Below are positions 4,608-16,954 of a stretch of 64,000 nt of DNA, in pieces. How positions within the stretch are numbered: position 1 is the stretch's first letter; each line of letters starts with the position of its first letter. A program made the position numbers and the translations under genes. The DNA is from Escherichia coli (GTDB lineage Bacteria > Pseudomonadota > Gammaproteobacteria > Enterobacterales > Enterobacteriaceae). The DNA is taken from assembly GCF_002854065.1 (NCBI RefSeq), contig NZ_CP024147.1; one strand, written 5' to 3'. The notes beneath the pieces were generated by a model, which saw only the letters and a list, made by a program, of their open reading frames with translations, was not told the origin of the DNA and did no database searches.

Positions 4608-5336
4608 TTAATCACTGAATACCAACGAATCTAATACACCTTGTCCACTATGAACTCCTCCTTCAACTGACTCTGCTGATTTGCTACGGATCAAATACCC
4701 AGCAAAACTGTGATCAGCGCTAGATGCATTGTTACCTATCTGGACGGAGAACATTCCTAGTTCGCTGACCAGATCAGTAACCTGATATAACTCCCCTTTA
4801 CGGACAACCAGAGAAGGTGTAGCTCGCGGGACAGGATGTATCCGACGCATGAACGACCAGGATTGATATTGCAGCGGGTCAAGTCTTGCCAGTTTTAACT
4901 GGATATCAGAGCCAAACAGACAATGCCCACCCCCTTCGCCCTGGTTTTTGAGAACCCATGAATCAGAAGGAGACTCTTTTACAATGCTGATTGTATCAGG
5001 GCTAACAGGAAGCATTTCGCCCAACACCATTTTTATGATATCAACCTCTTCCGGCTTCAGTCCAAAAGCAATCAGTTCATCGCACCCCAAATGAGAGAGC
5101 AACATTTGTACTCGCTTACTTGTCGCAAGTTGCTGAGCGACTGTTGCATTCACCGCAACTCGGTGCTGCTCAATCAATACTCGCGTGGCCATTAGCGTCT
5201 GGCAACACTCCTTCTCATTGAGACTGGCGGCTTCATAATCTGAGTATTGATATCCGGCACGTAAGTAAACAGAAGTAGTATGGGTGTATGAACTTGTCAT
5301 TGTTTTGACATTTATCAAATATATTCGATTATGCAT
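4608..5336 (-). CDS. Hypothetical protein (242 aa; alternative start at 5300 gives 230 aa), divergent from arsR; contains vicinal Cys pair (KECCQT)
   Basis: Only long ORF covering this interval; convergent with the ATPase gene; no recognised family; weak RBS at both candidate starts. Confidence 0.45.
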   Translation of the reverse strand: MHNRIYLINVKTMTSSYTHTTSVYLRAGYQYSDYEAASLNEKECCQTLMATRVLIEQHRVAVNATVAQQLATSKRVQMLLSHLGCDELIAFGLKPEEVDIIKMVLGEMLPVSPDTISIVKESPSDSWVLKNQGEGGGHCLFGSDIQLKLARLDPLQYQSWSFMRRIHPVPRATPSLVVRKGELYQVTDLVSELGMFSVQIGNNASSADHSFAGYLIRSKSAESVEGGVHSGQGVLDSLVFSD

Positions 5337-5353
5337 ATGTGTTGTTGATTTTC

Positions 5354-5368
5354 ATCTCCGCAGGAGAT
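5354..5368. promoter_or_regulatory. Perfect 15-bp palindrome ATCTCCGCAGGAGAT in the divergent promoter region just upstream of the arsR RBS
   Basis: Seen directly; RBS AGGAGG at 5387-5392. Confidence 0.3.
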
Positions 5369-5393
5369 ATCGTTACCTAAACGAACAGGAGGA

Positions 5394-5747
5394 ATGATGT
5401 CGCTTACTTCCCTACAACTCTTTAAGAATCTGTCTGATGAAACACGTCTGGGTATTGTTCTCATACTCAGAACTATGGGGGAGTTGTGCGTATGTGATCT
5501 TTGCACTGCACTTGATCAATCACAGCCTAAGATCTCCCGGCATCTGGCTATGTTGCGAGAAAGTGGGATTTTGCTTGATAGTAAACACGGTAAATGGGTT
5601 CATTACCGGTTATCCCCACACATTCCTTCATGGGCTGCACAGATTATTGAGCAGGCCTGGTTAAGCCAACAGGACGATCTTCAGGCCATCGCCCGTAAAC
5701 TGGCTTCAGTCAACTGCACTAACAGCAGTAAGGCTATTTGTATTTAA
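5394..5747 (+). CDS. arsR: Arsenical resistance operon repressor ArsR (R773-type, ELCVCDLC As(III) site)
   Basis: 117 aa; near-identity to recalled R773 ArsR (…LQLFKNLSDETRLGIVL…ELCVCDLC…). Confidence 0.92.
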   Translation: MMSLTSLQLFKNLSDETRLGIVLILRTMGELCVCDLCTALDQSQPKISRHLAMLRESGILLDSKHGKWVHYRLSPHIPSWAAQIIEQAWLSQQDDLQAIARKLASVNCTNSSKAICI

Positions 5748-5793
5748 AAATTTGCCTGAATATATATGATTTCCCACATATGAGGTATTGAGA

Positions 5794-6156
5794 ATGAAAA
5801 CGCTAGCGGTATTCGACCCGGCAATGTGTTGTAGCACCGGTGTCTGCGGTACTGATGTCGATCAGGCTCTGGTTGATTTTTCCGCGGATGTGCAATGGCT
5901 GAAACAACGAGGTGTTCAGGTAGATCGTTTCAATCTGGCACAGCAACCGATGAGCTTTGTCCAGAACGAGAAAGTTAAAGCATTTATTGAGGCTTCTGGT
6001 GCGGAAGGGCTGCCATTACTGTTACTGGATGGCGAAACAGTGATGGCCGGGCGTTATCCGAAACGGGCTGAACTTGCACGGTGGTTTGGAATTCCGCTGG
6101 AGAAAGTAGGATTAGCGCCTTCAGGCTGCTGCGGTGGTAATACTTCTTGTTGTTAA
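5794..6156 (+). CDS. arsD: Arsenic metallochaperone/secondary regulator ArsD
   Basis: MKTLAVFDPAMCCSTGVCG…GCCGGNTSCC; start set at ATG 5794 after RBS TGAGG. Confidence 0.92.
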   Translation: MKTLAVFDPAMCCSTGVCGTDVDQALVDFSADVQWLKQRGVQVDRFNLAQQPMSFVQNEKVKAFIEASGAEGLPLLLLDGETVMAGRYPKRAELARWFGIPLEKVGLAPSGCCGGNTSCC

Positions 6157-6173
6157 GTATGTCAGGAGGACAT

Positions 6174-7925
6174 ATGAAATTCTTACAGAACATCCCCCCT
6201 TATCTGTTTTTTACTGGTAAAGGAGGCGTTGGTAAAACCTCTATTTCCTGCGCCACGGCGATCCGTCTGGCAGAACAGGGTAAACGAGTGCTGCTGGTCA
6301 GTACCGATCCGGCCTCAAACGTAGGCCAGGTCTTTGGCCAGGTTATTGGCAATACTATTCAGCCAATAGCCACTGTTCCTGGATTGTCGGCACTTGAGAT
6401 TGATCCTCAGGCCGCTGCGCAACAGTACCGGGCCAGAATCGTTGACCCTATTAAAGGTGTCCTGCCTGATGACGTCGTTAGCAGCATCAACGAACAACTG
6501 TCTGGTGCATGCACAACAGAGATTGCGGCTTTTGATGAGTTTACCGGATTACTGACAGACGCCTCTTTGCTGACCCAGTTTGACCATATCATCTTTGATA
6601 CCGCGCCAACCGGCCATACTATTCGCCTTCTCCAGTTGCCAGGCGCCTGGAGCAGCTTTATTGACAGCAATCCCGAGGGCGCATCCTGCCTCGGCCCGAT
6701 GGCGGGGCTGGAAAAACAGCGTGAACAGTATGCCCATGCCGTTGAAGCACTGTCCGACCCAGCGCGTACCCGCCTGGTTTTAGTTGCCAGACTGCAAAAA
6801 TCCACCCTGCAAGAAGTCGCCCGAACTCATTTAGAACTCGCCGCAATTGGCCTTAAAAATCAGTACTTGGTCATTAATGGCGTTCTGCCCAAAACTGAAG
6901 CGGCAAACGATACACTGGCTGCGGCTATATGGGACCGTGAACAGGAGGCGCTGGCCAATCTTCCTTCTGACCTTTCCGGTCTGCCAACTGACACGTTATT
7001 CCTCCAACCACTCAATATGGTCGGCGTGGCTGCATTAAGTGGGCTTCTCTCCTCTCAGCCTGAGGCAGCATCATCTTCTGAAGAATACATTCAGCAACGA
7101 CCTGAAATTCCGTCGCTCTCAGCGTTAGTCGATGATATTGCCCGTAACGAACATGGTCTGATAATGCTAATGGGCAAAGGCGGTGTGGGGAAAACCACGA
7201 TGGCGGCAGCCATTGCCGTCAGACTGGCCGAAATGGGATTTGATGTCCATCTGACCACCTCAGATCCAGCAGCACACCTCAGCACAACCCTGAACGGTAG
7301 CCTTAACAATCTGCAGGTCAGTAGAATCGATCCTCACGAGGAAACAGAACGCTATCGTCAGCATGTTCTTGATACCAAGGGTGGAGAACTGGATGAAGCG
7401 GGTAAACGCCTGCTGGAAGAAGATTTACGCTCTCCTTGTACCGAAGAGATTGCGGTCTTCCAGGCCTTTTCACGGGTGATTCGTGAAGCGGGTAAGCGCT
7501 TCGTGGTCATGGATACGGCACCCACCGGGCATACCCTACTGCTGCTGGATGCCACCGGGGCGTATCACCGCGAAATTGCTAAGAAAATGGGCGATAAAGG
7601 CCATTTCACCACGCCAATGATGCAGCTTCAGGACCCGGAGCGAACCAAAGTGTTACTGGTCACGCTGCCGGAAACCACGCCCGTGCTTGAGGCGGCAAAT
7701 TTGCAGGCCGACCTTGAACGCGCAGGGATTCATCCCTGGGGCTGGATTATCAATAACAGCCTTTCCATTGCGGATACCCGTTCGCCGCTGCTTCGTCTGC
7801 GGGCGCAACAGGAACTTCCGCAGATCGAGAGTGTTAAACTCCAGCATGCCAGTCGCGTAGCTCTTGTTCCTGTACTGGCGTCAGAACCGACCGGCATCGA
7901 CAAACTCAAACAACTCGCTGGTTAA
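6174..7925 (+). CDS. arsA: Arsenite-translocating ATPase ArsA (two nucleotide-binding domains)
   Basis: Two GKGGVGKT P-loops and two DTAPTGHT motifs; start at MKFLQN after RBS AGGAGG. Confidence 0.92.
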
Positions 7926-7972
7926 TTATTGTCATTACTCGGGGCAGCTTTGCTGCCCTTTCGGGAGGTTAT

Positions 7973-9262
7973 ATGTTACTGGCAGGAGCCATTTTTATCC
8001 TGACCATCGTGTTGGTTATCTGGCAGCCAAAGGGATTAGGCATTGGCTGGAGCGCCACGCTGGGTGCCGTACTGGCTCTGGCATCGGGTGTGATTCATAT
8101 CGCCGATATTCCGGTGGTGTGGAATATCGTCTGGAACGCCACGGCCACCTTTATTGCCGTCATTATCATCAGTCTGTTGCTGGATGAGTCCGGCTTTTTT
8201 GAATGGGCTGCACTGCACGTTTCCCGCTGGGGCAATGGGCGTGGACGTCTGCTATTTACCTATATTGTTCTGCTCGGCGCGGCGGTGGCGGCATTGTTTG
8301 CCAACGATGGCGCGGCGTTAATTCTGACGCCGATCGTTATCGCCATGCTACTGGCGCTGGGATTCAGTAAAAGCACCACGCTGGCTTTCGTGATGGCCGC
8401 AGGGTTTATTGCCGATACCGCCAGCTTGCCACTTATCGTATCGAACCTGGTCAATATCGTTTCGGCTGATTTCTTCAAACTGGGATTCACGGAGTATGCG
8501 TCAGTTATGGTGCCGGTGGATATTGCCGCCATTGTCGCCACGCTGGTGATGCTGCATCTTTTTTTCCGCAAAGATATCCCGCCCACTTATGAGCTGGCGC
8601 GACTGAAAGAACCCGCAAAAGCCATCAAAGATCCTGCGACGTTCAGAACCGGCTGGGTTGTGCTCCTCCTTCTGCTGGTCGGTTTTTTTGTCCTTGAGCC
8701 GATGGGGATCCCTGTGAGTGCGATTGCGGCAGTGGGGGCGGCAATCCTGTTTGCGGTGGCCAAAAAAGGTCATGGTATTAACACCGGTAAAGTGCTGCGC
8801 GGCGCGCCCTGGCAGATCGTGATCTTCTCACTGGGGATGTATCTGGTGGTATACGGGTTGCGTAACGCCGGTCTGACGGATTATCTCTCTGACGTGCTGA
8901 ACGTACTGGCAGATAAAGGACTGTGGGCCGCGACGCTGGGGACAGGATTCCTGACTGCATTCCTCTCTTCTATCATGAACAATATGCCGACCGTACTGGT
9001 TGGCGCACTGTCGATTGATGGCAGCACCGCGACCGGCGTTATCAAAGAAGCGATGATTTATGCCAACGTCATTGGCTGCGATCTGGGGCCGAAAATCACC
9101 CCTATTGGTAGCCTGGCGACACTGCTCTGGCTGCACGTGCTTTCACAGAAGAATATGACAATCTCGTGGGGATACTACTTCCGCACCGGGATTATCATGA
9201 CCCTGCCTGTGCTGTTTGTAACGCTGGCTGCGCTGGCGCTACGTCTCTCTGTCACTTTGTAA
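7973..9262 (+). CDS. arsB: Arsenite/antimonite efflux permease ArsB
   Basis: 429-aa polytopic membrane protein, C-terminus …[12 protein letters not shown] as in ArsB. Confidence 0.92.
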
Positions 9263-9274
9263 TGAGATTCTGAT

Positions 9275-9700
9275 ATGAGCAACATCACTATTTATCACAA
9301 CCCAGCCTGCGGCACCTCGCGTAATACGCTGGAGATGATCCGCAACAGCGGTACCGAGCCGACCATTATTCTTTACCTTGAGAACCCACCTTCGAGGGAT
9401 GAATTGGTCAAACTCATTGCCGATATGGGTATTTCAGTACGAGCGCTGCTGCGTAAAAACGTTGAGCCTTACGAGCAACTGGGTCTTGCAGAAGATAAAT
9501 TTACTGACGATCAGCTCATCGACTTTATGTTGCAACACCCAATTCTGATTAACCGTCCGATCGTGGTTACGCCGCTGGGAACCAGACTGTGCCGTCCTTC
9601 TGAAGTGGTTCTGGATATCCTGCAGGATGCGCAGAAAGGGGCTTTCGCTAAGGAAGACGGTGAAAAGGTCGTTGATGAAGCAGGAAAACGGCTGAAATAA
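9275..9700 (+). CDS. arsC: Glutaredoxin-dependent arsenate reductase ArsC
   Basis: 141 aa, HNPACGTSRNT catalytic Cys motif. Confidence 0.92.
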   Translation: MSNITIYHNPACGTSRNTLEMIRNSGTEPTIILYLENPPSRDELVKLIADMGISVRALLRKNVEPYEQLGLAEDKFTDDQLIDFMLQHPILINRPIVVTPLGTRLCRPSEVVLDILQDAQKGAFAKEDGEKVVDEAGKRLK

Positions 9701-9702
9701 AT

Positions 9703-9728
9703 AATAAGGGGGCGAATGCCCCCTTATT
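9703..9728. terminator. Hairpin AATAAGGGGGC-GAAT-GCCCCCTTATT between convergent arsC and GNAT gene (bidirectional terminator candidate)
   Basis: GC-rich 8-bp stem with flanking A/T runs. Confidence 0.6.
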
Positions 9729-9734
9729 CGTACC

Positions 9735-10271
9735 TCAGAGCATCATGCCTGAATCCGATGGTAACGTGCTGTTCCCTTCGCCCAGATTTCGTTGCAGCAA
9801 CACTGTGTCAAGCCAACGACCATGCTTGAAGCCAATATTTTTCAGCGTACCAATCTCAGTAAATCCAACCTGCTGATGGACTTTCAGCGAACCTTGATTA
9901 TTGCTATCGCCGACAATAGCAATCATCTGCCGATAGCCGTGAGTTTCTGCCCAGGCAATGACGTAGCGCAGCAACGCTTTTCCTGTCCCCTGACGCTGTG
10001 CGTCCGGGTGAATATAAATCGAATCTTCGAGAGTGTGGCGGTAGGCGTAGCGTTCACGGTAACGAGTGAGATAACAATACCCGATAACCTTTTCTTCCTC
10101 TAACGCGACAACCCACGGTAGCGCCTGATTGCGGATCTTTTTCAGGCGGGTAAGCATCTCGTGGGTATCCGGAGGTTCAGTTTCAAAGCTGGCGGTACCG
10201 TGAAGAACATGATGGGCGTAGATATCGCGTATAGCGGGGATGTGCTTTTCTTCTGCGTTAACGATTTTCAT
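9735..10271 (-). CDS. GNAT acetyltransferase of the phosphinothricin-acetyltransferase family (ArsN1-like arsinothricin N-acetyltransferase candidate)
   Basis: 178 aa; resembles E. coli MnaT/PAT proteins (…IYAHHVLHGTASFETEPP…YIHPDAQRQGTGKALL…); positioned in an ars island. Confidence 0.7.
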   Translation of the reverse strand: MKIVNAEEKHIPAIRDIYAHHVLHGTASFETEPPDTHEMLTRLKKIRNQALPWVVALEEEKVIGYCYLTRYRERYAYRHTLEDSIYIHPDAQRQGTGKALLRYVIAWAETHGYRQMIAIVGDSNNQGSLKVHQQVGFTEIGTLKNIGFKHGRWLDTVLLQRNLGEGNSTLPSDSGMML

Positions 10272-10435
10272 TGTTCTGTTCCCGTTGGCATCTTTTTCAA
10301 GGTTACTTGAAAATCCTGAGGAAAGGTAAATACAAAAGCTTATGACCCAATAAGCAGGCTAATCTTCAATCCCATCTTTTGTTTTCATTCATGCAGGGAG
10401 ACAAATATGTGCTTCCAGTATCCTTATTTTTTATG

Positions 10436-10479
10436 TTACCTTTTCCGTTATGTCTAAAATGACATAACGGAAAAGGTAA
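10436..10479. promoter_or_regulatory. 44-bp perfect palindrome (19-bp arms TTACCTTTTCCGTTATGTC / GACATAACGGAAAAGGTAA, 6-bp spacer) ending 4 nt before the tauE-like start codon
   Basis: Seen directly; right arm contains the putative RBS AAAGG. Confidence 0.5.
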
Positions 10480-10483
10480 ACCC

Positions 10484-11308
10484 ATGTCCTCAGAATCAAA
10501 ACGGAACGGAAAAGGTTTTTTATCAGGCACGTTAATCGGTGCTTTAGGCGGCTTAATTGGCCTCGGTGGCGCTGAGTTCCGCCTTCCCGTCCTGATGGGT
10601 AGTTTCAAAATGCCGACGCTTGAAGCGGTTATTTTTAACAAAGCGATGAGCCTTACTGTTGTCGCTGTTGCTTTGATATTCCGCACAAAATCCATCGCCG
10701 TCGACCAGCTGTTTGCTCATCTTGATATTGTCATCAATTTGCTGGCCGGGAGCCTTATAGGTGCATGGTGGGCAGCAGGAAGAGCCATAAAAATGTCCCG
10801 TATTTGGCTGGACAGAACCATTCTGCTCCTGCTTGTTATCCTGTCATTCGTCATGTTTTCAGAAGCATTGATGCCTCTGCATGATAGCTCCGCTGGATTA
10901 TTCCAGCCCGGAATCGCGACCATTATTGCGGGTGTTATTGCGGGTGTTATTGCGGGTTTCTTCATCGGGAATGTTGCTGCTTTGCTGGGTGTTGCAGGGG
11001 GAGAGCTCCTGATACCAACTATCGTTATCCTTTTTGGGGCTGACATTAAACTGGCTGGCAGTTTGTCACTCATGATCAGTTTACCGACGATGATTGTGGG
11101 GTTCTCTCGCTACACTAATGCAGATGCTTTCCAGATCCTGAGAAAAGAGAAAAAACTTTTTGTGTGGATGGTCATCGGTTCCGTTATAGGTGCCGCTATT
11201 GGGGGCCTTATGCTCGGTATGTTCCCGGTAAGAGTACTTATGACTCTGTTAGGCGCGGTACTTCTTATTTCCGCGATCAAAACCTTTAAGCATACCCGGC
11301 AAAGATAA
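10484..11308 (+). CDS. TauE/SafE (TSUP/DUF81) family anion exporter-like membrane protein
   Basis: 274 aa, two glycine-rich hydrophobic halves (GALGGLIGLGGAEFRLP…; …GVAGGELLIPTIVILFG). Confidence 0.7.
   Translation: MSSESKRNGKGFLSGTLIGALGGLIGLGGAEFRLPVLMGSFKMPTLEAVIFNKAMSLTVVAVALIFRTKSIAVDQLFAHLDIVINLLAGSLIGAWWAAGRAIKMSRIWLDRTILLLLVILSFVMFSEALMPLHDSSAGLFQPGIATIIAGVIAGVIAGFFIGNVAALLGVAGGELLIPTIVILFGADIKLAGSLSLMISLPTMIVGFSRYTNADAFQILRKEKKLFVWMVIGSVIGAAIGGLMLGMFPVRVLMTLLGAVLLISAIKTFKHTRQR
10925..10960 (+). repeat. 12-bp tandem repeat ATTGCGGGTGTT x3 (last copy degenerate) inside the tauE-like gene, encoding (IAGV)2-IAGF
   Basis: Seen directly. Confidence 0.6.
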
Positions 11309-11370
11309 TAGCCGTTTACGCTTTGGACTATTCCGCATTACAGAGAAAATGATTTCGAAAAGGTATCAGA

Positions 11371-11739
11371 ATGAAAAAGAATCCCCTTAAATCAAACTTA
11401 ATCTTAGTCAGACCGAGGATCTATATTAACGACAACATCTCGCTGGGGCCGGGGAAGGTTGACCTTTTAAGGGCGATTGATGGCTTTCACTCTCTTTCTG
11501 CGGCAGCTAAAGATTTGGGGATACCTTATAAAAAAGCATGGCTCTTAATTGACACTTTGAATAAAGGGATTGGTCAGCCAGTTGTAACCACTTCCACTGG
11601 TGGTAACAAGGGCGGTGGTACAGTTCTGACGCCATTGGGGCGTAGCCTGCTGATCTGGTATGACCAGGCCGAGGCCCACCTCAATGAGCAATCTCAGCAA
11701 CAGTTAATCGAACTTGAAAAGATTCTTTTTGGAAAATGA
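11371..11739 (+). CDS. ModE N-terminal-domain-like winged-helix regulator (single domain, no Mop/TOBE domains)
   Basis: 122 aa; …AAKDLGIPYKKAWLLIDTLNKGIGQPVVTTSTGGNKGGGTVLTPLGRSLLIWY resembles ModE N-terminal HTH with the GG(K)GGGG loop. Confidence 0.6.
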   Translation: MKKNPLKSNLILVRPRIYINDNISLGPGKVDLLRAIDGFHSLSAAAKDLGIPYKKAWLLIDTLNKGIGQPVVTTSTGGNKGGGTVLTPLGRSLLIWYDQAEAHLNEQSQQQLIELEKILFGK

Positions 11740-11784
11740 CAGAGACCTTTGTTATCCATCGGGAAAATAGAGTGACAGCAATGC

Positions 11785-11810
11785 ATGAAGGGGGCTAATG
11801 CCCCCTTCAT
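11785..11810. terminator. Hairpin ATGAAGGGGGC-TAAT-GCCCCCTTCAT between convergent modE-like gene and arsA2; 19/20 identical to the hairpin at 9703-9728
   Basis: Seen directly. Confidence 0.6.
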
Positions 11811-11812
11811 TA

Positions 11813-13570
11813 TTACTTCGCCATTTCTTCCAGCAGGTCAATACCAACCGGCTCTTCGCTCTGTAGCGCTGTTAATGCAATACGCTTTGCATACTGCTCT
11901 TCCACATCAGAGATGAGAGGCAGCTCGCGGTTAGCTCTGGTCTTCAGGAAAGGTGAAGACGGCTCAGCAGCTGCCAGGCTGTTATTCACAACCCATGCCC
12001 ACGGCTCAATGCCAGCCCGACGCAGATCCTGCTGCAGGTTAGCGGCTTCCAGTACAGGTGTCGTTTCGGCAAGCGTCACGATAATCACCTTCGTCTTCTC
12101 CGGGTCCTGCAATTGCATCATTGGCGTCATCACATGGTCATGTGTTTGCCCCATCTGGCGCACCATTTCCCGGTGATAGGCTCCAGTCGCATCCAGTAGC
12201 AGAAGTGTGTGACCCGTTGGCGCGGTGTCCATAATGACAAAATGATCGTCTGCCTCTTTGATTATCCGCGAGAATGCCTGGAAGACGGCGATCTCTTCAG
12301 TACATGGTGAGCGGAGATCTTCTTCCAGCACCGCCAGCCCCTCAGCGTCTAATCCTTTGCCCTGATTCTCCAGTACAAAACGGCGATAACGCTCTGTCTC
12401 CACCTTCGGATCGATACGGCTGACCTGCAGATTTGGCAGCGAGCCATCCAGCGTGTAAGACAGATGTGCTGCCGGATCGGACGTGGTCAGATGGACTTTA
12501 TGACCGCGTTTTGCCAGCGATACCGCGACCGATGCTGCAACAGTCGTTTTGCCCACGCCGCCTTTCCCCATCGTCATTACCAGCCCTTTGCCTGTCAGAC
12601 TGAGTTCATCCACTAACGAGGAAAGTTTCGGTAAATCCAGAGCATTTAGCGTTGTATTGGAGAGAGACAGTGGCGCTTTGCTCTCTGTTAATAACTCTCG
12701 CAGGGCTTCCAGACCGACCAGATTAAATGGCTTCAGAGACAGCTGCGAGCGGGGAAGATTAACCAGATTATCAGGCATTGCCTGTAATGCTTTTTCTTCC
12801 CGAGCCAGAATACTTTGCGCCAGTGGATCATTTTCACCGGCAAACGGTGGCAGCACACCATTAATGGCAAGGTGTTGATGCTGCAAACCAATAGCAGAAA
12901 GCTCATCGTGCGTATGAGAAACCTCTTTCAGCGTTGAAGCCTGAGCTCGGGCAACCAGCACTAAGCGTGTGAGAGCTGCGTCGGACAGCGCTTTAACCGC
13001 ATCGGAGTACTGGTGCTGTTGTTTCTCAAGCCCTACCAGAGGTCCAAGGTTTGCAGCGGCATCAGGGTTCGCTTCGAGATAACCGCTCCAGGCTCCCGGC
13101 AATTCAAGCATGCGGATGGTGTGACCGGTTGGCGCGGTATCAAATACGATATGGTCATATTTTCCCCGCAGCTCATGATTGGTCAGCAGACCAGTAAACT
13201 CATCAAACGCAGCGATTTCCGTGGTGCATGAGCCGGAAAGCTGCTCTTCAATGCTGCTGACCACATCGGCTGGCATCAGCCCGCGAACAGGGTCGAGCAC
13301 ACGGTCACGATAGGCTTGCGCTGCAGCCATCGGATCAACTTCCATCGCGGCAAGATTTTCTACAGTACTGATATCTGTGATTCGGTGGCCGATAGTCTGG
13401 CTAAATACCTGGCCGACATTGGAAGCCGGATCGGTACTCACCAGAAGCGTTCTCTTACCCTGATCGGCCAGCCATACTGCAGTAGCACAGGCCAGGGATG
13501 TCTTACCCACTCCACCTTTACCAGTGAAGAAGATGAACGGGGGAATGTCTTTTAAAAATGGCATATTCAT
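11813..13570 (-). CDS. arsA: Second arsenite-stimulated ATPase ArsA (divergent paralogue)
   Basis: Two GKGGVGKT / DTAPTGHT sets; start MNMPFLKD with RBS GAGGAG. Confidence 0.85.
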   Translation of the reverse strand: MNMPFLKDIPPFIFFTGKGGVGKTSLACATAVWLADQGKRTLLVSTDPASNVGQVFSQTIGHRITDISTVENLAAMEVDPMAAAQAYRDRVLDPVRGLMPADVVSSIEEQLSGSCTTEIAAFDEFTGLLTNHELRGKYDHIVFDTAPTGHTIRMLELPGAWSGYLEANPDAAANLGPLVGLEKQQHQYSDAVKALSDAALTRLVLVARAQASTLKEVSHTHDELSAIGLQHQHLAINGVLPPFAGENDPLAQSILAREEKALQAMPDNLVNLPRSQLSLKPFNLVGLEALRELLTESKAPLSLSNTTLNALDLPKLSSLVDELSLTGKGLVMTMGKGGVGKTTVAASVAVSLAKRGHKVHLTTSDPAAHLSYTLDGSLPNLQVSRIDPKVETERYRRFVLENQGKGLDAEGLAVLEEDLRSPCTEEIAVFQAFSRIIKEADDHFVIMDTAPTGHTLLLLDATGAYHREMVRQMGQTHDHVMTPMMQLQDPEKTKVIIVTLAETTPVLEAANLQQDLRRAGIEPWAWVVNNSLAAAEPSSPFLKTRANRELPLISDVEEQYAKRIALTALQSEEPVGIDLLEEMAK

Positions 13571-13590
13571 CAGTGATAGCTCCTCTGGAA

Positions 13591-13953
13591 TTAAGGCATA
13601 CGTGGAATGCTGCAGCAACGCGGTTGCGTACTGTCTTCACTCCAGTCCTGAGTTAGCGGAATATCTGCCCAACGGGCGATATCTTCACGAGTCGGCAGTT
13701 TGCCTGCCATCACCAGCTTGCCGTCGAGCAAGGTGACAGGGAGGGATTCCATCCCTGATGTGTTCATAAACTCTTTGATTACAGGGGTATTCAGGAACTG
13801 CTGCGGGTTTTTCGCAAGGCTGTAGCGCTGAATATCAACGCCATTCTTTTTCGCCCATTCGGCGCTGGCATTCCATTTGACGGCTTCGTCGCTCACCACA
13901 ACGCTGCTGGTTGCGCAGCAGCCTGCTGCTTCAAAGATCTCAATTTTTGACAT
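13591..13953 (-). CDS. arsD: ArsD-like metallochaperone (divergent; only the N-terminal CC pair conserved)
   Basis: 120 aa, MSKIEIFEAAGCCATS…, immediately upstream of arsA2. Confidence 0.7.
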   Translation of the reverse strand: MSKIEIFEAAGCCATSSVVVSDEAVKWNASAEWAKKNGVDIQRYSLAKNPQQFLNTPVIKEFMNTSGMESLPVTLLDGKLVMAGKLPTREDIARWADIPLTQDWSEDSTQPRCCSIPRMP

Positions 13954-14028
13954 GGATTGTTTACCTCAGTGTTTAGTCATTTGGCTTTACACTGAGGTAA
14001 ACGAAGGTGGTGGGAAAAAGATGCGCGA

Positions 14029-14574
14029 TTAATTCATTTTTTTGTGGCAGCAGACAAAAGATGTGTCATCCGCCTCAATCTGGCAGAGTTCTGTCATCGT
14101 CTCTTTCAGGTGTTTTCTGGCCCGAAGTAGTCGGGATTTAAACGCTGTAAGCGTGATTCCCCATTCATCGGCCAGGGACTGCTGGGGACGCCGGTTAAGG
14201 TCGGACTCTTCAATCAACCACCGCTCATCTTCGGGTAAAGCCTGTAATGTTTCAGGCAGGCAAATATCCAGTGTTGAGATTGCATCAAGGGATGCGTCTG
14301 TTAATAGGGCATCTTCTTCCAGCTCAACAAACGCCCTGGTGGTTCGGTACTCATCAATCAGCAGATTCCTTGCTACCCGATACAACCAGGCTCGCGGATT
14401 TTCCATCTCACAAAAAATGTCTGAATGGGCTCGGGCACGCAGGAAAAGGTCTTGCAGAAGGTCTGCTGCTTTTTCGCTATCGCCTGTCTTCGATATCAGA
14501 AAGCGAGAAAATTCGCCTTCATGCTGCCGCCAGAACACGCTCATACAGCTGTTGAATGCTGTTATGTCACTCAT
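14029..14574 (-). CDS. ECF (sigma-70 family, group IV) sigma factor with C-terminal Cys-containing tail (…ELCQIEADDTSFVCCHKKMN)
   Basis: Region 2 (…NPRAWLYRVARNLLIDEYR) and region 4 (…SLADEWGITLTAFKSRLLRARKHL) motifs; ATG 14574 with RBS GAAGG overlapping arsH stop codon. Confidence 0.75.
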   Translation of the reverse strand: MSDITAFNSCMSVFWRQHEGEFSRFLISKTGDSEKAADLLQDLFLRARAHSDIFCEMENPRAWLYRVARNLLIDEYRTTRAFVELEEDALLTDASLDAISTLDICLPETLQALPEDERWLIEESDLNRRPQQSLADEWGITLTAFKSRLLRARKHLKETMTELCQIEADDTSFVCCHKKMN

Positions 14575-14582
14575 ACTAACCT

Positions 14583-15293
14583 TCAAATTTTGCTCTGATT
14601 AACCCGTCGGGAAAGTTCTTCTGCAGACTCTTTTCGTTCACTGTAGCGATCGACAAGATAGGCAGAATTTGCCCGGGTCAACAATGTAAACTTCATCAAT
14701 TCTTCCATCACATCCACGATGCGGTCGTAATATGGTGACGGTTTCATACGTCCATCGTCATCAAACTCCTGCCAGGCTTTTGCTACCGAGGACTGGTTCG
14801 GAATAGTGATCATTCTCATCCAACGACCAAGCACGCGCATCTGGTTGACTGTGTTGAATGACTGGGAACCTCCACACACTTGCATAACAGCCAGAGTTTT
14901 TCCCTGAGAAGGACGAACAGCACCTTCAGATAATGGTATCCAGTCAATTTGTGCCTTCATAATACCAGTCATCGCTCCGTGTCGTTCCGGAGAGCACCAC
15001 ACCATTCCTTCAGACCAGCGGACCAGTTCACGCAACTCCATAACTTTTGGATGTGACTCCGGTGCATCATCAGGAAGTGGAAGGCCAGATGGATTAAAAA
15101 TGCGGACTTCTGCGCCCATCGCAGTTAACAACCGACCAGCTTCCTCTGTCGCCAGTCGACTGTATGAGCGCTCACGAACTGAGCCATAAAGCATTAGTAT
15201 ACGAGGGGGGTGAGATATTGTCGGTATCCCCATTTTTTGCTCAGTTATTGCAGCATCAAATAAATCAGGAACTATATTATTTAGCTTATTCAT
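14583..15293 (-). CDS. arsH: ArsH, NADPH-dependent FMN reductase (organoarsenical oxidase)
   Basis: 236 aa; …[18 protein letters not shown]… flavodoxin-like motif typical of ArsH. Confidence 0.85.
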
Positions 15294-15391
15294 TTTTTAT
15301 TTTCCCTATAGATTCGGGATCTTAGTAGGATGGATTCAGACGGTTCGATGCAGCTTTCGTCAATCATGACAGTTATGAGTTTTTCGGTTAC

Positions 15392-15715
15392 TTATCCATT
15401 TTTGCCAGCGGGTTCCGTAACATCTGTTTTACTGTTTACACAGCACTCTTCACGTAAGAATTCGATGATAGCTTCCAGTATTTCGTATTGAGAGACGCAC
15501 ATGAGCGTTCGACTCTCCCGGTTTTGTGTGACGAGTCCTACTGATACTAAGGCTGAAATATGATGACTTAACGTTGATGAGGGAATGCCAAGCTGCTTTT
15601 GCAATTCACCTACAGGCAAACCTTGTTCTCCAGCTTTTACAAGATGTTTGAATATGAACAAACGGGTCGGGTGACCCAGCTCTTTTAGTGCTTTAGCTAC
15701 TTCTTCCAATTGCAT
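15392..15715 (-). CDS. arsR: ArsR/SmtB family repressor, C-terminal vicinal-Cys type (…REECCVNSK…)
   Basis: 107 aa; HTH …LPVGELQKQLGIPSSTLSHHISALVSVGLV…; lacks the CVC site of R773 ArsR. Confidence 0.8.
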   Translation of the reverse strand: MQLEEVAKALKELGHPTRLFIFKHLVKAGEQGLPVGELQKQLGIPSSTLSHHISALVSVGLVTQNRESRTLMCVSQYEILEAIIEFLREECCVNSKTDVTEPAGKNG

Positions 15716-15735: not shown

Positions 15736-15798
15736 GATATTTCGATAATACCAGAAATATCTTGACCAGAATTATATTTCGATTATTCTAGAAATGTA
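15736..15798. promoter_or_regulatory. Two tandem imperfect palindromic operator-like sites (GATATTTCGATAATACCAGAAATATC at 15736-15761 and TATATTTCGATTATTCTAGAAATGTA at 15773-15798) in the arsR2/arsP divergent intergenic region
   Basis: Seen directly; candidate ArsR2 binding sites. Confidence 0.45.
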
Positions 15799-15820: not shown

Positions 15821-16954
15821 ATGAATAGTTGGATTTCTATGCTGCAAGATGCCGCAGAGATGTTTTTGTTTTTGGCCGTCGAGCTATCTTTGCTGTTTAT
15901 TGTCATCAGTGCCGGTGTGAGCCTGATAAGGCAAAAGGTCCCGGACCATAAAATCCAGCAATTGTTGGGGGCGAAAAAAGGAAAAGGCTACCTGCTGGCC
16001 TCGTTGTTGGGAGCCGTTACCCCTTTCTGTAGTTGCTCAACAATTCCAATGCTACGAGGGTTGTTGTCGGCGAAAGCAGGGTTTGGTCCGACACTCACTT
16101 TTTTGTTTGTTTCACCGTTGCTTAATCCCATTATCGTGGGGTTAATGTGGGTTACCTTTGGCTGGAAAGTAACTTTGTTGTACGCGATCATCGCTGCCGG
16201 TGTCTCAGTCCTTGCCAGTATCGTATTGGATTTACTAGGATTTGAACGTCATATTGTTGATCACAAAAACTCAGCATCAAGTGGTTGCGCCACCAAATGT
16301 GATGATTCCGAAGCTTCGGTAAAAACGTCGGCGGGTTCCAGTTGTTGCAGCACTAGCTCGACTCAATTGCCTGTAAAAACGAGTTGCTGTACTTCATCAG
16401 CGAACCCCATAATTAACTTAAGGACGGTAAAGAACGAGCAGAACGTATCAACGTGTTGTTCATCAATATCATCTGAACAACCAGCTGTTAGCTGTTGCAG
16501 CAGCGAGAATCTGGGCAATGTGAATCTCACACCGAATACCACCTCTGGCCCAATAAAGTTAGCTATGAAAGATGCCTTACAGCAGTTTAAGGATGTTCTG
16601 CCTTATCTTTTGTTAGGTGTATTAATAGGTTCATTTATTTATGGCTTTATCCCTTCAGAGTGGATTGCAGCTCATGCCGGAGCAGATAATCCCTTAGCCA
16701 TACCGCTGAGTGCAGTTGTTGGTATTCCGTTGTATATACGCGCAGAGGCAGTGATACCACTTGCATCAGTGCTGATGACTAAAGGAATGGGCCTGGGGGC
16801 ATTAATGGCCTTGATAATCGGTAGTGCTGGAGCGAGTTTGACAGAAGTAATACTGCTTAAATCAATGTTCAGAATGCCTATGATAGTCGCTTTTCTGACA
16901 GTTATCTTAGGTATGGCAATTCTAATGGGTTATCTGACTCAATTCTTGTTTTAA
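15821..16954 (+). CDS. arsP: ArsP-type organoarsenical efflux permease with Cys/Ser-rich loop
   Basis: TPFCSCS motif recalled for ArsP; start ATG 15821 after RBS GAGGG; central loop has four CC pairs. Confidence 0.8.
   Translation: MNSWISMLQDAAEMFLFLAVELSLLFIVISAGVSLIRQKVPDHKIQQLLGAKKGKGYLLASLLGAVTPFCSCSTIPMLRGLLSAKAGFGPTLTFLFVSPLLNPIIVGLMWVTFGWKVTLLYAIIAAGVSVLASIVLDLLGFERHIVDHKNSASSGCATKCDDSEASVKTSAGSSCCSTSSTQLPVKTSCCTSSANPIINLRTVKNEQNVSTCCSSISSEQPAVSCCSSENLGNVNLTPNTTSGPIKLAMKDALQQFKDVLPYLLLGVLIGSFIYGFIPSEWIAAHAGADNPLAIPLSAVVGIPLYIRAEAVIPLASVLMTKGMGLGALMALIIGSAGASLTEVILLKSMFRMPMIVAFLTVILGMAILMGYLTQFLF

Follow-up and report, generated by a model that had tools for sequence, protein, structure and literature searches.

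Two arsenic repressors, ArsR1 and ArsR2, are encoded in the 64,000-nucleotide stretch of Escherichia coli DNA analysed here (the window: part of contig NZ_CP024147.1, assembly GCF_002854065.1), both within one acquired arsenic island that adjoins what is left of the native ars locus. The reading we favor, with a probability of roughly 0.55, is that the region consists of two independent repressor-operator circuits in a single acquired island, plus the scar of a deleted native operon, with ArsR2 acting as a sensor of organoarsenicals. The two-circuit architecture as a whole is likely; that ArsR2 is selective for organoarsenicals, as judged by analogy with better-known regulators, stands at about even odds. 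The island extends from the start of the window, which falls inside an IS2 element, to about position 23,000, and is sited between gorA and dinQ, immediately upstream of the native locus. An earlier note on this DNA had assigned the two repressors to different As(III)-site classes and had proposed that they, together with an orphan native operator, might set up regulatory cross-talk among three promoters.

The two repressors and their operators

The 87-bp spacer between arsR2 and the divergent arsP-type permease gene (hereafter arsP) holds two copies of a 26-nt element, each containing ATTTC-N10-GAAAT. These are the only perfect copies of that motif in the window, and it recurs, usually two or three times, in 47 of 48 arsP-arsR2 spacers drawn from Escherichia, Citrobacter, Aeromonas, Limnobaculum, Buttiauxella, Vibrio, Photobacterium, Shewanella, Neptuniibacter and one Desulfobulbus genome. 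This phylogenetic footprint is strong evidence that ATTTC-N10-GAAAT is the operator of the ArsR2 family, and a defined candidate operator for the family, here in two copies, is what is newly stated in the present work. The possibility that the palindromes are chance AT-rich repeats was rejected, given that there are just two perfect matches in 64 kb and that they are conserved across genera. ArsR2 would bind the two palindromes and repress both arsP and an arsR2-arsH-sigma-arsD2-arsA2 operon from back-to-back promoters; the predicted sites, with the sequences ATTTCGATAATACCAGAAAT and ATTTCGATTATTCTAGAAAT, are placed relative to those promoters in Table 1.

The C-terminal vicinal cysteines pointed out in the earlier note are indeed present in ArsR2: its 107-residue open reading frame (ORF) contains the motif REECCVN, which supplies Cys91-Cys92, and its α3 region has no cysteine. 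By sequence, the closest solved structure is that of AfArsR from Acidithiobacillus ferrooxidans (6J05 in the PDB; E 2.2e-11, about 30% identity), which has a type 2 site made up of Cys95, Cys96 and Cys102. An AlphaFold model of ArsR2 (mean pLDDT 89.7) has the standard ArsR/SmtB fold, and its best fold match is again 6J05, with TM-scores of 0.81/0.86; weaker PDB matches of the sequence include YgaV and BigR, both of them thiol-based sulfide sensors. The vicinal pair of ArsR2 aligns with Cys95-Cys96 of AfArsR, in the same columns at the end of α5, but nothing stands opposite Cys102: the tail, VNSKTDVTEPAGKNG, has no cysteine, and there is thus no third ligand 5-6 residues past the pair. The two proteins also differ in their operators and at Cys73, which is a tyrosine in AfArsR; in the ArsR2 model this residue lies in wing strand β2, just before α5, and the CC pair falls inside helix 77-96 (α5) or at its end. 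The family is a large one, with more than 800 clusters at 90% identity and 546 species-level genome loci. An alignment of 30 of its sequences shows no variation at Cys73, Glu90, Cys91 or Cys92, and in a larger set Cys73 is found in 121 of 121 sequences and the CC pair in 116. An extra cysteine 4-7 residues past the pair, where AfArsR has Cys102, is carried by about a quarter of the sampled homologues and by about half of those in 80 species loci; the ArsR2 of the window does not have it, nor do its Escherichia and Citrobacter relatives and most of those in Aeromonas. The assignment of the two repressors to different As(III)-site classes accordingly stands for ArsR1, which has a type 1 site, and is not established for ArsR2, since the third ligand of the AfArsR As(III) site is absent.

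In having an AfArsR-like scaffold and, of the type 2 site, just the vicinal pair, ArsR2 resembles, by description, SpArsR of Shewanella putrefaciens 200 (Cys101/Cys102 only), from which it differs in that its family has a third invariant cysteine, Cys73. The SpArsR gene is said to have an arsP gene beside it. There was no S. putrefaciens entry among the matches listed in the homologue searches, one of which was seeded with a Shewanella member of the family.

ArsR1 is a much more familiar protein. Its 117 residues include the helix-3 CVC site that the earlier note had described, ELCVCDLC (residues 30-37), providing Cys32, Cys34 and Cys37. It matches Pfam HTH_5 (E 2.6e-16) and, over its full length (1-117), the E. 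coli ArsR subfamily NF007528, with 218.5 bits against a cut-off of 97. It shares 84 of 117 residues (72%) with K-12 ArsR, and there is only one conservative change between the two from the CVC motif through the helix-turn-helix (HTH) and recognition helix; a Citrobacter plasmid carries a 100% identical copy, and the common Klebsiella plasmid ArsR is about 84% identical. ArsR1 thus resembles the R773 and K-12 repressors in its length, in its Cys32-Val-Cys34-Asp-Leu-Cys37 arrangement and in its near-identical recognition helix, and R773 in that its gene is the first of an arsRDABC operon; its operator is also homologous to the K-12 ArsR binding site. The differences from K-12 are that the protein is only 72% identical and that the operator core is GCAT-N7-GTTG; 1996 work from the Rosen laboratory reportedly gave the ArsR consensus core as TCAT-N7-TTTG.

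The predicted ArsR1 operator, ATTCGATTATGCATATGTGTTGTTGA, is of the K-12/R773 type and overlaps the -35 of its own operon, ending in the -35-like hexamer TTGATT. Alignment to K-12 suggests a promoter with -35 TTGATT at 5344-5349 and -10 TATCGT at 5367-5372; an alternative, TTGACA-16-GATTAT, is found at 5305-5332. A degenerate pattern shared by this operator and the native site described below, ATTCGNTWANNCATATRTGTTKTTGA, has only those two matches in the 64 kb, against 0 expected by chance; the pattern having been built from the same two sites, this shows that they resemble each other and that nothing else in the window is like them, and is not an independent discovery of a motif. The ArsR1-type and native sites and genes are homologues rather than chance matches. 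ArsR1 would bind 5323-5348 and repress arsR1-D1-A1-B-C, and As(III) or Sb(III) would release it, as in R773. Divergent from arsR1 is an ORF at 4608-5336 (minus strand) whose match is limited to the C-terminal ATP-binding part of a eukaryotic-type glutathione synthetase; ArsR1 may co-regulate it, since its upstream region overlaps the ArsR1 operator.

The native ars remnant and the proposed cross-talk

The window from 24125 to 24340 aligns to the K-12 sequence upstream of arsR, which bears out the orphan chromosomal operator that had been placed at 24293-24340. Its core, TTCGTTAAACCATATATGTTTTTGACTTA, is identical at 27 of 29 positions to the published E. coli ArsR binding sequence (PMC6555750), and the site at 24304-24329, ATTCGTTAAACCATATATGTTTTTGA, is the homolog of the ArsR1 operator. 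Beyond it lies a clean deletion of 1686 bp (K-12 positions 3648490-3650175), which starts 10 bp past the -35 hexamer TTGACT and fuses the -35 region to the final ~16 arsB codons; its exact left edge is 24340, the very position at which the earlier note had ended the operator. Lost with it are the K-12 stretch at -10 spacing, the 5' leader, the whole of arsR and arsB codons 1 to ~414, with arsC left behind. The native -10 would lie within the deleted stretch, to judge by the spacing of the hexamers rather than by a mapped start site. A simple promoter scan detected no plus-strand promoter in the fused remnant; since the same scan misses the K-12 ars promoter too, it cannot judge the activity of the remnant.

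Of 5426 complete E. coli genomes, 1111 contain the identical deletion junction as a contiguous sequence, and the deletion corresponds to an arsC-only state, with arsR and arsB lost, that has been reported for phylogroup B2 and some E isolates (PMC5923176). The idea that the orphan operator is a strain-specific accident was rejected in view of these 1111 genomes and the published lineage-level deletion. As in the published B2 locus, arsR and arsB are gone and arsC is kept between gor and the chu/slp region; here, in contrast, IS1 interrupts arsC as well, and about 7 kb upstream, between gor and dinQ, lies an inserted complete ars island.

Since the two sites are homologous, ArsR1 probably binds the native remnant, where its sequence suggests occupancy of 24304-24332. 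In published reporter circuits derived from the arsR operon of R773, the promoter carries the ArsR binding sequence of the E. coli chromosome (PMC6555750). The remnant may act only as a decoy, because the stretch expected to hold the -10 and start has been lost and the downstream arsC is cut by IS1; the effect of ArsR1 there would be limited to that role or to weak control of the truncated arsC. To this extent the proposed cross-talk is plausible, given homologous sites and an HTH nearly identical to that of K-12 ArsR, but the part of it that would link ArsR2 with either of the other promoters does not hold up. In the order and spacing of its half-sites the ArsR2 motif bears no relation to either the ArsR1 or the native site, and there is no copy of ATTTC-N10-GAAAT at the ArsR1 or native promoter, even allowing one mismatch; with this unrelated operator confined to the arsR2-arsP spacer, ArsR2 appears to be cut off, at the level of DNA, from both of those promoters.

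A full cross-regulating network, with two repressors and three promoters and each ArsR acting on the operators of the others, would draw on the fact that both proteins are ArsR/SmtB winged-helix repressors, on the plausible binding of ArsR1 to the native site and on one study in which reporters with E. coli-type ArsR tolerated the A. ferrooxidans binding sequence as a second site (PMC6555750). Such a network is nonetheless very improbable: the operators differ as just described, the recognition helices differ as well (STLSHHISAL in ArsR2, QPKISRHLAML in ArsR1), and the native remnant has no K-12 sequence at the expected -10 and start site.

What ArsR2 may sense

In AfArsR, the C102S substitution abolishes the response to As(III) and keeps that to methyl and aromatic trivalent arsenicals (PMC4287715), and SpArsR, which naturally has the vicinal pair only, is selective for MAs(III) (PMC11868830, PMC13236881). 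Because two-cysteine sites are methylarsenite-selective in both of these cases, ArsR2 most likely senses trivalent arsenicals, probably organoarsenicals. Its sensor would be the Cys91-Cys92 pair at the end of α5, and its likeliest inducers, given that the third AfArsR ligand is absent, would be two-coordinate trivalent organoarsenicals such as methylarsenite and reduced roxarsone.

The genes under its predicted control point the same way. ArsH, encoded directly downstream of arsR2, belongs to a family that oxidises trivalent organoarsenicals (PMC6138428), and ArsP permeases export them (PMC6205960); these functions, along with the behavior of AfArsR C102S and SpArsR, fit an organoarsenical-responsive module. 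The 377-residue permease scores 186.3 bits with ArsP_1 against a cut-off of 32.3, and its cysteine-rich central loop marks it as the long form of the family (TC 2.A.119), for which two size classes have been described, the long one with a hydrophilic insertion in the middle (PMC2963123). When the gene context of ArsR2 homologues was surveyed in 80 species loci, an ArsP-type permease was found divergent from the regulator in 52; in Serratia, Hafnia, Ewingella and Citrobacter the next gene downstream, on the strand of the regulator, is arsH, and about 24 loci, mostly of Vibrio, have a sigma-70-family gene downstream. In seven loci of Aeromonas spp., an ArsR2-type regulator divergent from arsP sits beside an AfArsR-type regulator with a CC-x6-C tail, followed by a canonical arsD-arsA; by its sequences, this is a natural pairing of the two-cysteine and three-cysteine forms of one scaffold.

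Several observations weigh against organoarsenical selectivity. Cys73, present in all 121 family members, could supply a third ligand, perhaps across the dimer, and beta-sheet cysteines do serve as As(III) ligands in ArArsR (PMC11868830). The extra cysteine past the CC pair is common in the family, as noted above, and among the ArsR2 homologues it does not track the adjacency or absence of arsP; a sister variant of the island has an extra-cysteine regulator and no arsP, yet has the same arsH-sigma-arsD2-arsA2 genes. Finally, among named families the permease comes closest to a Cu/Zn exporter, though the match is under the cut-off.

These points lead to the alternative that ArsR2 is a full As(III) sensor, with three-coordinate binding by Cys73 (perhaps of the partner subunit), Cys91 and Cys92, in what would be one more variant of the As(III) site, and that arsenite induces both modules. 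The three cysteines are invariant in the 30-sequence alignment, and in the AlphaFold monomer Cys73 lies just before α5 and the CC pair at its far end. ArsR/SmtB dimers pack their α5 helices antiparallel, as in the α5 metal sites of SmtB and CzrA, so that Cys73 might come close to the CC pair of the partner subunit. The precedent of ArArsR applies here too, and two genes of the operon, arsD2 and arsA2, are of kinds classically linked to As(III). Against this, two-cysteine derivatives of the scaffold no longer respond to As(III), and ArsD2 is likewise without the third cysteine of its own As(III) site; on balance, an arsenite-sensing ArsR2 is possible, and we regard it as a tentative alternative on the unlikely side.

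It is decidedly less probable that ArsR2 is no arsenic sensor at all and answers instead to Cu, Zn or Cd, or to a persulfide or oxidant, in controlling a metal-exporting ArsP_1 permease. The permease reaches no NCBIfam equivalog, and its best matches there are SO_0444 Cu/Zn efflux and SaoE efflux; in Vibrio and Photobacterium there are no further ars genes close to the regulator, whether it stands with the permease or by itself; and the weaker structural matches YgaV and BigR are sulfide sensors. But the NCBIfam scores are far under their cut-offs (123 bits against 300 for SO_0444), the closest structure to ArsR2 is that of an arsenic sensor, and the pairs of Enterobacterales and Aeromonas lie within ars loci, with arsH directly downstream in several genera and arsRBC or arsDA alongside. 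A persulfide sensor of the BigR/SqrR/YgaV type was ranked low in particular, as ArsR2 is without the α2 cysteine used by BigR and SqrR and is embedded in ars loci.

The organoarsenical reading of ArsR2 can be carried further. Within the second module the equivalent of AfArsR Cys102 is absent from ArsR2, Cys18 is replaced by valine in ArsD2 and Cys172 by asparagine in ArsA2, so it is conceivable, if unlikely, that arsP-arsR2-arsH-sigma-arsD2-arsA2 is a dedicated system for two-coordinate trivalent organoarsenicals, in which each of the three arsenic-binding proteins (ArsR2, ArsD2 and ArsA2) is short of one canonical thiolate. ArsD2-ArsA2 would then be a chaperone-ATPase pair specialised for organoarsenical export, perhaps with ArsP, and the cysteine-tailed SigZ-like sigma factor may add a second layer of arsenical sensing.

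Island content, distribution and significance

On the plus strand the island carries arsR1-arsD1-arsA1-arsB-arsC (5394-9700), in which ArsD1 has Cys12, Cys13 and Cys18 and ArsA1 has Cys113, Cys172 and Cys422. Then come the genes for an ArsN1-like acetyltransferase (9735-10271, minus strand; ArsN1b-like, with 145 bits, under the cut-off of 210) and, beside it at 10484-11739 (plus strand), for a TauE-family exporter and a ModE-like regulator with the ModE N-terminal domain; since the Combat11I9 variant of the island is without the TauE/ModE-like pair, the latter is an apparent accessory insertion. The minus-strand genes arsA2, arsD2, SigZ-like sigma, arsH and arsR2 (11813-15715), the divergent ArsP_1-family permease gene and an integrase gene complete the set (Table 1).

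The absence of a strong minus-strand terminator between arsR2 and arsA2 in the window, together with the hairpin past arsA2, is consistent with a single arsR2-arsH-sigma-arsD2-arsA2 transcription unit. In the 75-bp gap between the sigma and arsD2 genes there is a perfect 10-bp inverted repeat, ACCTCAGTGT-N16-ACACTGAGGT (13968-14003, minus strand), which could be an RNA stem-loop or a binding site. Cysteine-rich C-terminal tails like that of the SigZ-like sigma (for example EECC...C-x7-C-x2-C) are found in 23 of 24 sigma-family genes near ArsR2 homologues in Vibrio, Aeromonas and Psychromonas, mostly directly downstream; no separate anti-sigma gene was recognised in the arsR2 operon of the window, and the protein is a possible thiol- or arsenical-sensing sigma factor. 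The score of ArsD2, 84.4 bits, falls just below the ArsD cut-off of 90, and that of ArsA2 is 944 bits against a cut-off of 650. The ArsA2 Cys172 to Asn and ArsD2 Cys18 to Val changes are kept in the island variants and in a narrow Enterobacterales ArsD2 clade, down to 60% identity, and the other ArsA and ArsD genes beside ArsR2 homologues all retain the three cysteines; a single ArsA with C172N has been noted as a sole exception and left uninterpreted (Castillo and Saier, PMC2963123).

Table 1. Features of the acquired island and of the native ars remnant (coordinates are those of the window)
Feature	Position	Strand	Basis or placement
ArsR1-type operator (predicted ArsR binding site), ATTCGATTATGCATATGTGTTGTTGA	5323..5348	+	homology to native site 24304-24329
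arsR1, R773/E. coli-type ArsR, type 1 site Cys32-Cys34-Cys37	5394..5747	+	Pfam HTH_5; NCBIfam NF007528
arsD1-arsA1-arsB-arsC, inorganic arsenic efflux and reduction operon	5794..9700	+	downstream of arsR1; ORFs and RefSeq annotation
GC-rich hairpin, likely bidirectional terminator closing the arsR2 operon after arsA2	11785..11810		11-pair stem, ATGAAGGGGGCTAATGCCCCCTTCAT
arsD2-arsA2, divergent ArsD (Cys12/13, Val18) and ArsA (Cys113, Asn172, Cys422)	11813..13953	-	profile scores
SigZ-like ECF sigma factor, C-terminal C-x11-CC-H tail	14029..14574	-	Pfam Sigma70_r2 and r4_2; TIGR02959 132 bits, under cut-off 168.65
arsH, organoarsenical oxidase family	14583..15293	-	directly downstream of arsR2; TIGR02690 403.6 bits against cut-off 292
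arsR2, AfArsR-like ArsR/SmtB repressor; Cys73, Cys91, Cys92, no further C-terminal Cys	15392..15715	-	6J05 match; family alignment; AlphaFold model
ArsR2 operator site 1 (predicted), ATTTCGATAATACCAGAAAT	15739..15758		adjoins -35 of arsP promoter, downstream of arsR2 promoter
ArsR2 operator site 2 (predicted), ATTTCGATTATTCTAGAAAT	15776..15795		overlaps -10 regions of both predicted divergent promoters
arsP-type permease, TPFCSCS motif, central loop with four Cys-Cys pairs	15821..16954	+	Pfam ArsP_1 (PF03773)
Native ars promoter remnant: ArsR binding site and -35 TTGACT (24325-24330)	24304..24340	+	junction at 24340/24343
Last ~16 codons and stop of native arsB, fused to promoter remnant	24343..24391	+	K-12 alignment
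Native arsC, cut near codon 123 of 141 by IS1 (~24772)	24404..24772	+	K-12 alignment

The nearest chromosome record is that of E. coli strain CUWW06 (wastewater, Thailand), to which the window is almost identical; there are about nine single-nucleotide differences and 1-nt indels at 15292 and 24198, and an 80-nt stretch just past the IS1 element (25541-25620) is missing from the CUWW06 record. The whole island is also carried by pAPEC-O78-2 and related plasmids, and ArsR2 at at least 95% identity is found on 627 plasmids, mostly conjugative ones of E. coli and Salmonella and many of them from pigs and poultry.

The arsR2-arsP segment also has matches in 2383 of the 5426 complete E. coli genomes, about 2200 of them chromosomal copies at ~83% identity. 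In O26 strain RM8426, for example, such a copy comes directly after the native arsRBC (locus positions 8993-10397), so that the same two regulator classes are adjacent, with the same two ATTTC-N10-GAAAT sites and an ArsR2-type protein 92-96% identical to that of the island over 97 amino acids; there, however, the native arsR2 stands alone opposite arsP, whereas the island gene heads arsH-sigma-arsD2-arsA2 and encodes a longer C-terminal tail. In K-12, a deletion of ~1.6 kb took the arsR2-arsP pair, leaving about 70 bp of the 3' end of the regulator gene. Some 40% of complete E. coli genomes, and hundreds of plasmids, combine a type-1 ArsR with an ArsR2-type regulator, which implies that a large part of the species has two ArsR classes as its native state. 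To judge from these comparisons, the lineage of the window has lost its native ars genes, a native arsR2-arsP copy among them, and has regained both regulators on the island.

Both repressors are thus of known kinds, the operator scar is that of a known lineage deletion and the combination is common; the main value of the analysis is corrective, in that the orphan operator turns out to be an ordinary and widespread deletion scar. The losses of cysteine in ArsR2, ArsD2 and ArsA2 may mark a module specialised for organoarsenicals. K-12, the model for ars regulation, is without arsR2-arsP, and the second, apparently insulated circuit for sensing arsenicals has therefore received little study in E. 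coli. Whether its inducers are organoarsenicals only or also include arsenite bears on how gut and farm bacteria respond to feed additives of the roxarsone type and to microbial methylarsenite, and the circuit is also relevant to the design of species-selective arsenic biosensors.

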